A stretch of 64,000 nt of DNA from an uncultured Nitrososphaerota archaeon (GCA_964634735.1 CAZWMA010000002.1:5652-69651), one strand, 5' to 3'; counted from the stretch's first letter, positions 2,781-63,735 are shown. The notes: generated by a model not told the origin, from the letters alone. A program made the numbers and translations.

Positions 2781-3317
2781 TTAGAAGTCGATCTCTGAGG
2801 CGTCATAGTAGGTTATCTCACCCTGTCGGTCCGTCACGGCGAATATGAGGTCCTTCTTTGACAGCTTGGCAGACGAGGAGGCTGCGGCGATCTCGTTGAG
2901 AGATACAGGCTTCCCCTCGAGGAGCCCGTAGACGAGGTACTTGGCGGGCTCCTTCCCGATCTCAGCGCCGCGCCGGTAAACCCTGTACTCCAGCTTCGGC
3001 CCGAACCCCGGCTTTACCACGTACCCCCGCTTCCGGAGGTCCGAGTATAGCAGGTAGCGCATCCAGAGGTCTGGGTCTTCCTTGGAGACGTGCCTCAAGA
3101 AGGTTTCCATTGTGAAGACCTGGCCTTCCGCATCGGCAAGGGAAATCTTGTCCTTCTCGAGCAGGTACATTATCTCTACGTCGGATAGCGTCAGCACGCC
3201 CTTCTCCATCTCCCCGAAGGTCCCCTGCTGGTGCGTTCGGTCCGCATCAGGACCATTCATGGTCGCAGACCGTCCATTGAAAAGCGCCTTTGGGGGGGTA
3301 TCGGACATCCTGACCAA
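2781..3317 (-). CDS. endA: tRNA-splicing endonuclease EndA
   Basis: About 178 aa with the RKRGYVVKPG segment typical of the archaeal tRNA intron endonuclease catalytic subunit. Confidence 0.7.
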   Translation of the reverse strand: MVRMSDTPPKALFNGRSATMNGPDADRTHQQGTFGEMEKGVLTLSDVEIMYLLEKDKISLADAEGQVFTMETFLRHVSKEDPDLWMRYLLYSDLRKRGYVVKPGFGPKLEYRVYRRGAEIGKEPAKYLVYGLLEGKPVSLNEIAAASSSAKLSKKDLIFAVTDRQGEITYYDASEIDF

Positions 3318-32227: not shown

Positions 32228-32264
32228 CGGTCCTGCCCTCAGGCTACTGAAAAAAGAGGATTAG

Positions 32265-32434
32265 TGGGGCTGGAGGGACTTGAACCCTCGACATGCGGGT
32301 TTCCCCGCTCTAGCCGCTCCAGAAGACAATCATCCCTGAGCGGTCATATTGTCTAACTAGAGACCTCTGGAGCCCTTAACGAGGCAGCGGAATAACCGGT
32401 GCCTTGCCGTCATACCGTGCTAGACCACAGCCCC
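32265..32434 (-). tRNA. tRNA-like gene of ~170 nt with ~94 nt of intron-like insertion; isotype unresolved, possibly Trp(CCA)
   Basis: Perfect 7-bp acceptor GGGGCTG/CAGCCCC, a D-arm with A14/R15/G18/G19/A21, and T-arm GAGGG-TTCAAGT-CCCTC. CTCCAGA is present and pairs with a downstream TCTGGAG. No simple canonical anticodon arm could be built by eye. Confidence 0.45.
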
Positions 32435-32555
32435 ACTAGAGAGAGAAAAAGTATCCAGAATTATATAAACTTGAGTTTGCTCCGAAGGACAACGACAGCG
32501 ATGAGTCGCGTTTGGGTCATATATCAAGGACGGGGACTGATTTGTTTTAATAAAG

Positions 32556-32656
32556 TGGAGCCTCAGGCGGGATTCGGACCCGCGACCACCGCCTGTTTGG
32601 GCAGGGTTCCGCCCGGCTTACCAAGGCGGTGCTCTACCAGGCTGAGCCACTGAGGC
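32556..32656 (-). tRNA. tRNA-Thr(GGT) with a ~24-nt intron at 37/38, CCA encoded
   Basis: Acceptor GCCTCAG/CTGAGGC, D-arm GCTC..GAGC, anticodon stem CCGCC/GGCGG with loop TTGGTAA interrupted by 24 nt; T-loop TCCGAAT. Confidence 0.75.
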
Positions 32657-43716: not shown

Positions 43717-44530
43717 CCCTCGGCATGAATATCGTTCCGATTCGTTCTCCGTTAATTATACTTTCCAGAGCCATATGGAGCTTGCCGTTGGCGATTACCA
43801 TCGGTATGCCATTCTTAGCGGTTATCTTGCCAGCGCGGAGCTTTGTGACCATGCCGCCAAAACCACCATGCCGCTCAGATGCCAACTTCTCAATGCTCAG
43901 GCTTACTTCCTCGACGAATGGAATCAGCTTCGATGATGACGATGCAGGATCCCCGGTATATAGCCCGTCTATGTCAGACAGGAGCACGAGAAGGTCTGCT
44001 TTGAGGTTCACTGCAACGAGCGCCGACAGCGTATCATTGTCGCCAAACTTGATCTCATCGATGGCTATGGTGTCGTTCTCGTTTATTATTGGCACTACGC
44101 CCAAGGATAGGAGCGTCTCAAAGGTGTTTATGAGGTTCTTGGTTCGCTTCTTGTTCCTAAAGTCATCCCATGTGAGCAGGACCTGGGCTACGTTGTAACC
44201 TCGCTCATCCATGGCATCCCGGTATGATTCCATAAGCATGACTTGCCCAACTGCGGCGAATGCTTGGAGGCACTTTATCTCGCCGTTTTTTAGGTGCTCA
44301 CGCATTATTGCCTTTCCTGCCCGTATGGCACCAGATGATACTAGGATAGGATTAATGCCCTTCTCCCGAATAGCAACGAGCTCGTCACAGAGCGCGCCAA
44401 TTTTTCCTGCGTCCAAGAGACCTTGATCGTTTGAGAGTGATGATGAGCCTATCTTAACGACTACGAGCTTTGAGTTCTTAAGCGATGACCGGAGTTTCAT
44501 CTCGCTTGAATTGTCGCTTTGGAACGGCAT
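43703..44530 (-). CDS. proB: glutamate 5-kinase (no PUA domain)
   Basis: Amino-acid kinase family N-terminus VVKIGSSSL...; first gene of the proB-proA-proC order. Confidence 0.8.
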   Translation of the reverse strand: MPFQSDNSSEMKLRSSLKNSKLVVVKIGSSSLSNDQGLLDAGKIGALCDELVAIREKGINPILVSSGAIRAGKAIMREHLKNGEIKCLQAFAAVGQVMLMESYRDAMDERGYNVAQVLLTWDDFRNKKRTKNLINTFETLLSLGVVPIINENDTIAIDEIKFGDNDTLSALVAVNLKADLLVLLSDIDGLYTGDPASSSSKLIPFVEEVSLSIEKLASERHGGFGGMVTKLRAGKITAKNGIPMVIANGKLHMALESIINGERIGTIFMPRVEHD

Positions 44531-63637: not shown

Positions 63638-63735
63638 TGGTAGCGGGGGGTGGATTTGAACCACCGATCTCGGGGTTTCCCAGCCTACACGGGGCATATG
63701 AGCCCCGCGGGATAACCTGGCTACCCTACCCCGCT
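63638..63735 (-). tRNA. initiator tRNA-Met(CAT) with a ~20-nt intron at 37/38, CCA encoded
   Basis: AGCGGGG 5' end with an A1:U72 pair, three consecutive G-C pairs in the anticodon stem (CGGGG/CCCCG), CTCATA[intron]A anticodon loop, T-arm GGTGG-TTCAAAT-CCACC. Confidence 0.75.

Follow-up and report, generated by a model that had tools for sequence, protein, structure and literature searches.

A two-intron tRNA-Trp gene with a nine-nucleotide middle exon predicted in the archaeal class Methanomethylicia

Introduction

The closest described relatives of the locus studied here, a 170-nt tRNA gene at positions 32265-32434 (minus strand) of a 64,000-nt stretch of DNA from an uncultured Nitrososphaerota archaeon (GCA_964634735.1, CAZWMA010000002.1:5652-69651; this whole stretch is called the window below), fall into two groups. 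The first comprises the tRNAs of Crenarchaeota/Thermoproteales that contain several introns, some with non-canonical bulge-helix-bulge (BHB) motifs (Sugahara et al. 2007/2008, as summarized in PMC4090602 and PMC4033280). An (alpha-beta)2-type splicing endonuclease is general in the TACK archaea (Thaumarchaeota, Aigarchaeota, Crenarchaeota and Korarchaeota) and has been linked to relaxed, non-canonical introns (PMC5829648, PMC4033280). The second group is formed by the introns of pre-tRNA-Trp. In euryarchaea this intron carries a box C/D small RNA, as exemplified by sR50 of Pyrococcus and by Haloferax volcanii (Clouet d'Orval 2001 and Singh 2004, as summarized in PMC4090602, PMC7994747 and PMC7714728). 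According to the same three accounts, the archaeal tRNA-Trp intron has a median length of 65 nt and nests a box C/D RNA, which in Haloferax guides the 2'-O-methylation of C34 and U39 (Cm34 and Um39). In Sulfolobus solfataricus, the 65-nt tRNA-Trp intron exists as a stable circular RNA without consensus C/D boxes (Danan et al. 2012, PMC3326292).

The locus in the window combines features of both groups. We conclude that it is, very probably, a functional tRNA-Trp(CCA) gene of Methanomethylicia (Verstraetearchaeota, TACK), composed of three exons and interrupted by two protein-spliced introns. An earlier note on this DNA had pointed out the locus as a tRNA-like gene with an unclear intron architecture, and several of its suggestions are taken up below.

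Results

A tRNA-Trp gene in three exons

The window is archaeal, as it contains archaeal 16S and 23S rRNA, RNase P RNA, signal recognition particle RNA and 5S rRNA, and the 170-nt tRNA gene is found in identical form in the Logan contig L001. Both ends of the tRNA are intact. In the 5' part of the RNA, the acceptor strand GGGGCUG is followed by UG and by the D-arm GUCU-AGCACGGUA-UGAC with G18 and G19 present; in the 3' part, the T-arm GAGGG-UUCAAGU-CCCUC is followed by the acceptor strand CAGCCCC and the discriminator base A73. All seven pairs of the acceptor stem are of the Watson-Crick type, and the CCA tail is not encoded by the gene. The coordinates and the clear acceptor stem (7/7 pairs), D-arm and T-arm given in the earlier note are thus exact, with the gene on the minus strand. 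The separation of the arms that it described is also real, but the extra sequence between the intact tRNA ends amounts to 96 nt and not to about 94 nt.

The 3' strand of the anticodon stem, CCCGC, is located just 5' of the variable loop AUGUC. Its partner GCGGG is present only in a split form, with GC ending the 5' block and GGG directly preceding CUCCAGA. Excision of AAGGCACCGGUUAUUCCGCUGCCUCGUUAA (30 nt, gene positions 30-59) and of AGGUCUC...GCGGGGAA (66 nt, gene positions 69-134) in silico results in a 74-nt RNA that ARAGORN reports as a flawless tRNA-Trp(CCA) cloverleaf. When intron 1 alone is excised, ARAGORN calls a tRNA-Trp with a 66-nt intron. With both introns out, the RNA has the features of an elongator tRNA, that is, the 7-bp acceptor stem, a 5-bp anticodon stem (GCGGG/CCCGC), a 7-nt loop (CUCCAGA, with U33 and G37) and a 5-bp T-stem with a loop of the GUUCRANU type, besides a D-stem of 3-4 bp. 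The tryptophan identity that had been suspected is therefore borne out, and the CCA anticodon, A73, G1-C72 and G2-C71 can all be read from the sequence; these are the identity elements of the archaeal tryptophanyl-tRNA synthetase. The earlier alternatives of two introns or of an intron within the anticodon stem both turned out to be true, since a 30-nt intron interrupts the stem at 28/29 and a 66-nt intron occupies the canonical site at 37/38. The exons are 29, 9 and 36 nt long (Table 1). The 28/29 junction is unambiguous, while the 37/38 junction can be moved by one A with the product unchanged. The fold of the precursor has a z-score of -4.11, and none of 200 shuffled sequences was equally stable.

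Table 1. Features of the tRNA-Trp locus and of the splicing endonuclease gene in the window.
Feature	Coordinates	Strand	Evidence
Exon 1 (29 nt; acceptor 5' strand, D-arm, G26, G27, C28)	32406..32434	-	In-silico splice; invariant among orthologues except for two D-loop positions
Intron 1 (30 nt, AAGGCACC...CGUUAA; non-canonical, 28/29, anticodon stem)	32376..32405	-	In-silico splice; covariation
Exon 2 (9-nt micro-exon GGGCUCCAG, positions 29-37, anticodon CCA)	32367..32375	-	In-silico splice; invariant
Intron 2 (66 nt, canonical 37/38)	32301..32366	-	ARAGORN after removal of intron 1
Exon 3 (36 nt; A38, CCCGC, variable loop, T-arm, acceptor 3' strand, A73)	32265..32300	-	In-silico splice
BHB-1 central helix, 5' strand G23 A24 C25 G26, pairs with intron CGUU (32378-32381)	32408..32411	-	Geometry of window introns; conservation; thermodynamic centroid of the precursor
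BHB-2 central helix, 3' strand GGGG, pairs with C32 U33 C34 C35 (32369-32372), one G-U	32303..32306	-	Invariant in 15 sequences
Guide-like block CUUCUGGAGC, complementary to G31-G37 and the first 3 intron bases (32364-32373)	32316..32325	-	Invariant; RNAalifold consensus
D'-like box AUGA (UGA invariant; CUGA in L071 and L120); 3/4 to consensus	32344..32347	-	Alignment
C'-like box AUGAUUG, 5/7 to RUGAUGA	32327..32333	-	GGGAUGAU invariant; sequence reading
TATA-like box TTTATATAA, start 35 nt upstream of tRNA position 1	32461..32469	-	Same box in orthologues
Stretch of six T located 10-15 nt downstream of A73; probably the terminator (archaeal type, putative function)	32250..32255	-	Sequence reading
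EndA paralogue without catalytic His, 178 aa, beta-like subunit	2781..3317	-	Both Pfam EndA domains; residue comparison

The two-intron layout causes standard tRNA finders to overlook the gene. ARAGORN called no gene at the locus either by default or with introns, including long ones, allowed, and a search of Rfam at the gathering threshold and at E<=10 gave no match to a tRNA or C/D family there. The failure of ARAGORN and of the Rfam tRNA model shows that, as the earlier note had observed, no single intron at 37/38 yields a standard anticodon arm. The Rfam tRNA model (RF00005) finds a distant relative with a single intron, L120 (49 bits), and misses the two-intron genes of the orthologous loci L028 and L013 (both described below), which explains why annotation pipelines would overlook the gene. 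A further tRNA-Trp was seen neither in the window nor in the orthologous loci fetched; these genomes probably have the two-intron gene as their sole tRNA-Trp gene.

Conservation among orthologues

A scan with the 3' 20 nt of the gene, using one genome per species, gave 24 loci, eight of which were bacterial tRNAs or chance matches. The remaining 16 were archaeal, two complete genomes included, and their records are titled Methanomethylicus, Methanosuratincola, Methanomethylicaceae or Verstraetearchaeota, except for one 'Thermoproteota' and three 'Nitrososphaerota'. The whole gene is contained in 13 of them, while three are truncated by the end of the stored sequence and match over the part that is present. 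A metagenome contig (L028) provided a fourteenth complete orthologue. The same three-exon layout, with a total length of 157-171 nt, was found in all of them.

In an alignment of 15 sequences, the window included, the exons are essentially invariant. Four pairs of the inner helix of intron 1 show double compensatory changes, and 95% of the cells of this helix are paired. The central helix of the splice motif of intron 1 (BHB-1) is paired in 98% of the cells and shows alternation between G-U and G-C, and the GGGG strand of the corresponding motif of intron 2 (BHB-2) does not vary. The observed values for cells paired, double changes and covariation score were not reached in any of 500 shuffles, and sliding the pairing partners as a control reduced the pairing from 92% to 45-57%. 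The TATA-like box is located at exactly -35 in 10 of the 15 loci, the window among them, and the rest have AT-rich variants.

Some records deserve a comment. The metagenome-assembled genome (MAG) SKW203 (JAOAJN01) contains two tRNA-Trp alleles (L007/L009), a short type of 157 nt on a 685-bp contig and a long type of 169 nt on a 117-kb contig, and is probably a mixed bin. Three loci from records titled 'uncultured Nitrososphaerota archaeon' (L010, L011 and L020) carry the Methanomethylicia-type two-intron tRNA-Trp, and L020 also encodes a splicing endonuclease (EndA) of the same family as that of the window. These Nitrososphaerota labels look too coarse or wrong.

Splice motifs of the two introns

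The BHB geometry was calibrated on the introns of tRNA-Lys(UUU) and tRNA-Thr(GGU) of the window, whose introns other than those of tRNA-Trp are canonical, as noted earlier. In both of these tRNAs, positions 32-35 pair with the four intron bases located just 5' of a 3-nt bulge that ends at base 38, the other bulge consists of bases 36 and 37 and the first intron base, and each bulge is cut after its second base. This agrees with the published geometry, in which a 4-bp helix lies between 3-nt bulges cut after the second base (PMC4090602).

Both tRNA-Trp introns possess this core, with two 3-nt bulges on opposite strands and a 4-bp helix between them. The bulges of BHB-2 are A36, G37 and A, with the cut after G37 (32366-32368), and A, A and A38, with the cut before A38 (32300-32302). 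The two intronic bases of the latter vary freely among the 15 sequences (AA, CU, CG, UG, UA and UU). The outer helix of BHB-2 is the anticodon stem, of which only 3 bp (G29-G31/C39-C41) are available until intron 1 is out, and its inner helix in the window consists of a G-C pair, a G-G mismatch and the pairs U-A, C-G and U-A. The bulges of BHB-1 are G27, C28 and A, with the cut after C28 (32405-32407), and A, A and G29, with the cut before G29 (32375-32377). The inner hairpin of intron 1, AGGCA-C-CGG/CCG-C-UGCCU, provides a covarying inner helix (h') of 8 bp. The strict hBHBh' form, with flanking helices h and h', is seen in neither intron, and both are predicted to be relaxed BHB motifs.

Like the multi-intron tRNAs of Crenarchaeota/Thermoproteales, the gene combines a canonical intron at 37/38 with an intron elsewhere in the tRNA body, and the motifs are of the BHB or relaxed HBh' type. 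It differs from them in several respects. The lineage is Methanomethylicia, for whose tRNA introns or EndA no description was found in a literature search. The non-canonical intron is at 28/29, whereas the review names 29/30, 30/31, 25/26 'etc.' as positions. It is conserved and covarying throughout the class, which is not like a recent transposition, and the middle exon is only 9 nt long.

Further pairings were noticed around these motifs. The 3' splice site of intron 2 (32300-32308, minus strand, and orthologues) can alternatively be placed in the tetraloop of a hairpin, GCGGG-GNNA-CCCGC, where the real 3' strand of the anticodon stem has as its partner an intronic copy of the 5' strand. The GNNA loops found are GAAA, GCGA, GUGA, GUAA, GCUA and GUUA. 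The distant relatives L071 and L120, which are without intron 1, have no such mimic of the anticodon stem. In the long-type orthologues (L008 at 1387-1557 on the plus strand, L009, L015, L016, L020 and L022), GGUCUAGCAC starts from the second base of intron 2 and repeats the D-arm sequence G9-C18 exactly. For a segment in the 3' part of intron 2, GCUAGAG, either of these two copies is a possible pairing partner (in the window, 32308-32314 with 32419-32424 for the D-arm itself). In the predicted centroid of the window, the segment pairs with the D-stem 5' strand while the BHB helix of intron 1 forms. The segment is not essential, because four short orthologues lack it.

The splicing endonuclease

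The earlier note had considered the EndA of the window to be of the homotetrameric alpha4 type on account of its length of about 178 aa. This could not be upheld. An alpha4 enzyme has the complete catalytic triad and the bulge-binding Arg in a single subunit of about 180 aa, while the triad of the window EndA is Tyr-Pro-Lys instead of Tyr-His-Lys, with Pro in place of His125 (M. jannaschii numbering), and Ser replaces the bulge-binding Arg seven residues before the catalytic Lys (residue roles according to PMC5829648). The length of 178 aa does not separate alpha4 from alpha/beta subunits. In all 80-odd orthologues of the protein the His is replaced by Pro or Gly, the motif being GKEPAKY, or GREGAKY in Nezhaarchaeota.

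When a His-bearing protein of Nezhaarchaeales was used as the query, a second EndA family came to light in Methanomethylicia. The proteins of this family are about 184 aa long and have Tyr, His and Lys, the Arg, a C-terminal Trp and an 11-residue Lys-rich insertion (KPVNIHKPKD). The insertion occupies the place of the Crenarchaea-specific loop (CSL) and is absent from the window copy and from the EndA of M. jannaschii. A Lys-containing CSL of the catalytic subunit confers a broad substrate range (PMC5829648); its presence here is read from the sequence. Both EndA types occur together in M. verstraetei (XRH75280.1 and XRH74824.1), M. subterraneus and a 'Methanosuratus' MAG. The existence of two paralogues, one of which has the Tyr/His/Lys triad and the Lys-rich loop, indicates that the endonuclease would be an (alpha-beta)2 heterotetramer whose non-catalytic subunit is encoded in the window. 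With such a host enzyme non-canonical introns are to be expected, so that the intron is not notable for the reason given before. The TACK host, the two-paralogue (alpha-beta)2 endonuclease and the Lys-containing N-terminal loop on its catalytic subunit are again shared with Crenarchaeota/Thermoproteales. A literature search for the splicing endonuclease of Verstraetearchaeota returned no papers.

No second EndA was found in the window by tblastn or by a profile hidden Markov model run over all open reading frames in six frames; a weak EndA match at 43964-44224 lies within a glutamate-5-kinase-like open reading frame and was discarded. The GKEPAKY family is kept across Methanomethylicia, Nezhaarchaeota and some Thermoprotei, and is accompanied by a catalytic 184-aa paralogue. 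By sequence, the window EndA, which lacks the Lys-rich loop, resembles catalytic alpha subunits more than it does crenarchaeal beta subunits (Protein Data Bank hits of 3e-12 versus 8e-5), and may therefore be an independently derived structural subunit.

A predicted kink-turn and an anticodon-antisense block in intron 2

The earlier note had drawn attention to the pairing of CTCCAGA with a downstream TCTGGAG and had interpreted it as a BHB arrangement. The pairing is real and extends to 10 bp (GCUCCAGAGG / CUUCUGGAGC, with one G-U), but it is not the splice motif, as BHB-2 uses positions C32-C35 and GGGG. The 10-bp duplex buries the 37/38 splice site in a continuous helix; thus the antisense duplex and BHB-2 are mutually exclusive, and the duplex is instead the counterpart of the guide duplex on C34 in archaeal tRNA-Trp introns. 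All of its 10 pairs are invariant in the 15 sequences and were predicted by RNAalifold unguided.

The invariant GGGAUGAU is located directly 5' of the antisense block, and an invariant UGACC is found further upstream. The resulting combination UGA-CC...GG-GAUGAU, itself invariant in the 15 sequences, can be read as a kink-turn (K-turn) in which a CC/GG stem and a 3-nt bulge (GAU) are combined with tandem sheared pairs, G-A and A-G, and with U-U; it constitutes an internal C'/D' pair that L7Ae might bind. In Methanomethylicia the D'-like box takes the forms AUGA, UUGA and GUGA. Unlike the remainder of intron 2, the boxes of the K-turn and the antisense block do not vary, and the block is followed by GCUA, GCGG or ACGG. 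Another candidate K-turn, made of the BHB-2 inner helix and UUAGA/GG, was rejected because the required A is G.

Intron 2 is the version of the pan-archaeal tRNA-Trp intron found in this lineage. It resembles the euryarchaeal intron in the tRNA, the site, the length (66 nt versus a median of 65 nt) and the internal K-turn-forming C'/D' pair. In both, the antisense sequence spans the 5' exon-intron junction in its pairing with the anticodon loop and is centred such that C34 would be the base chosen, and the guide and splicing folds exclude each other. Unlike the euryarchaeal intron, it has no terminal box C/D, its D' box is degenerate, the antisense to position 39 is lacking in Methanomethylicia (it is present in L071 and L120), and it is known here from sequence alone. 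By its description, the intron of S. solfataricus is similar in belonging to a TACK tRNA-Trp, in its length of about 65 nt, in the lack of consensus C/D boxes and in its complementarity around position 34. It differs in being reported as complementary also to position 39 and in that its gene has no second intron.

Distant relatives

A pattern scan of metagenomes gave 120 loci. Chance matches lacking any tRNA context accounted for 117 of them, and two were the distant relatives L071 and L120. Both are without intron 1. L120 has a single intron of 56 nt, and the 5S rRNA of this contig is 68% identical to that of the window. L071 (1315-1499, minus strand, of contig Ga0315296_10090798) has a canonical intron of 54 nt containing C'/D' and, in addition, a 56-nt insert in the D-loop, which indicates that a second intron in tRNA-Trp was acquired independently at a different site. 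In both relatives the D' box is the canonical CUGA, the C' box is AUGAUGU and the antisense block is the same. Upstream of D' lies a sequence complementary to tRNA positions 38-45, the fifth pair upstream of D' falls on position 39, and the pair at position 44 covaries. The predicted K-turn together with the anticodon-antisense core is common to very distant archaeal lineages, even without classical C/D boxes.

Neighbouring genes

The strand of tRNA-Trp also carries, 121 nt upstream, a tRNA-Thr(GGU) gene with a 26-nt canonical intron (32556-32656, minus strand), and most orthologous loci have a tRNA 3' end at its place. The 5S rRNA gene is found within a few kb of tRNA-Trp in the window, in L013, in L028 and even in the distant L120. 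A further tRNA at 63638-63735 (minus strand) was labelled '???' or Ser(cga) by ARAGORN; excision of a 20-nt intron at 37/38 gives a clean CAU anticodon (Met, or Ile2 if modified).

Discussion

The boundaries that give a perfect cloverleaf, the BHB geometry, the conservation and covariation and the conserved promoter box together argue for a real tRNA-Trp gene. A few observations weigh against this reading or against parts of it. All the orthologues come from MAGs. BHB-1 lacks an outer helix and uses the D-stem 3' strand, which requires the D-arm to be opened, and is for this reason counted as a relaxed motif. RNAalifold favours another register beside intron 1, in which G26 G27 C28 pair with G U U and the D-stem is kept; a U to C variant in L028 suits that register better and creates an A-C mismatch in the BHB-1 central helix. 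This central helix is present in the thermodynamic centroid of the window precursor. The inner helix of BHB-2 is weak, as the G-G mismatch is followed by 3-6 bp in the long forms and by essentially 1 bp in the four short forms. Finally, the presence of the catalytic EndA subunit in the genome of the window itself is presumed from its relatives.

The function of the conserved core of intron 2 is a separate question. Its likeliest role is in the L7Ae/Nop5/fibrillarin-dependent 2'-O-methylation of C34 before splicing, although the chances of this appear to us evenly balanced. Of the box C/D elements that the earlier note proposed to look for in the intron, the internal C'/D'-like boxes were found. 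The terminal boxes C and D were not, as intron 2 of the window and of the Methanomethylicia orthologues contains neither a further RUGAUGA-like element nor a CUGA at any place, and a position-39 guide was not found there either. The invariance of the duplex leaves no covariation in its support, and C/D ribonucleoproteins with a single K-turn are known as poor guides of methylation. Alternatively, the two-intron gene may be as described while the K-turn and the antisense block act as a folding or chaperone device that does not guide methylation, through L7Ae binding, through an anticodon-masking helix that orders splicing or by stabilizing the circular intron. We regard this as a serious possibility, although somewhat short of an even one. 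It would agree with the missing terminal boxes, with the absence of a D box after the antisense block and with the window centroid, in which GCUAGAG occupies the D-stem 5' strand while BHB-1 forms. However, L071 and L120 have kept the block and the K-turn although both are without intron 1, so that block and K-turn do not exist for coordinating two introns, and both relatives retain a rule-conforming position-39 D' guide. Furthermore, on the assumption that the canonical 12-nt spacer follows the C' box, since a D box for counting is missing, the nucleotide selected would be precisely C34, which is methylated in Haloferax (PMC4090602).

As to the gene itself, a decayed or insertion-disrupted, non-functional tRNA-Trp was mentioned in the earlier note as a way in which the locus might be explained. 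It would fit with the 96 extra nucleotides in the anticodon arm and with the failure of the standard finders and the Rfam tRNA model. On the other hand, the exons are (near-)invariant in 15 genomes, the intron helices covary, and the BHB bulges and helices and the promoter box at its fixed distance are kept; together with the z-score of the fold, these findings exclude a pseudogene for practical purposes, and the lack of any other tRNA-Trp in the window or the fetched loci also speaks against it. We therefore consider decay highly improbable. Still poorer is a gene with one long intron and another anticodon. ARAGORN in its relaxed mode (-ps) does report a tRNA-Arg(ccg) i(41,80) at the locus, that is, a tRNA-Arg(CCG) with an 80-nt intron. 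This call appears only below the default score, its loop CACCGGU has A at position 33, and the 'CCG' belongs to a variable part of intron 1 that reads GUGCUGG, GCGAAAGG etc. in the orthologues, while the two-intron solution gives a perfect cloverleaf; there is next to no chance that it is correct. A transfer-messenger RNA (tmRNA) or other tRNA-shaped non-coding RNA, suggested by the sole Rfam match at the locus, can be dismissed, because this match covers only the acceptor and T-arm, is far under threshold (22.7 bits versus a gathering score of 47) and skips the entire interior of the model, 328 positions long, because the spliced product is a complete tRNA-Trp and because, to our knowledge, archaea have no tmRNA.

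Taking the locus as a two-intron tRNA-Trp gene, its expression might proceed as follows. The precursor would be transcribed from the TATA box, and L7Ae, possibly with Nop5/fibrillarin, might bind the K-turn at a time when the anticodon loop is held by the antisense block. The RNA would then refold into the two BHBs, all four sites of which are predicted to be cleaved by the (alpha-beta)2 splicing endonuclease, and RtcB would join the exons. The introns would be released as circles, and end processing and CCA addition would complete the tRNA. It seems more likely that the introns are removed one after the other than together, since only a few base pairs would otherwise hold the 9-nt middle exon.

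A wider proposal can also be formulated, which we consider speculative and rather unlikely in its entirety. The tRNA-Trp intron of TACK-type archaea would be a working 'half' box C/D guide with a single internal K-turn, in which the distance to C'/D' selects C34 and, in some lineages, position 39. Methanomethylicia would have lost the position-39 guide and gained the class-wide covarying 28/29 intron that borrows the D-stem 3' strand, and the guide duplex, BHB-1 with an opened D-arm and BHB-2 would follow each other as ordered, mutually exclusive folds around the 9-nt micro-exon.

In kind, the gene belongs to what is already known, namely multi-intron TACK tRNAs with non-canonical BHB introns and the C/D-type intron of tRNA-Trp, and current understanding is not overturned by our findings. 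The novelty is modest and consists of the lineage, the 28/29 position with its class-wide conservation and covariation, the 9-nt micro-exon and a boxless tRNA-Trp intron with a single K-turn that is shared with distant lineages. The main use of the result is in annotation, as Methanomethylicia MAGs will appear to be without tRNA-Trp unless intron-aware archaeal modes are applied. For the biology of these archaea, it adds a class of methyl-reducing methanogens, which has lately become amenable to cultivation, to the lineages with multi-intron tRNAs and a two-subunit endonuclease, with a non-canonical intron old enough for covariation to have built up. As Methanosuratincola can now be cultured, with M. 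petrocarbonis LWZ-6 and M. verstraetei LCB70 in culture, the system is a tractable one.

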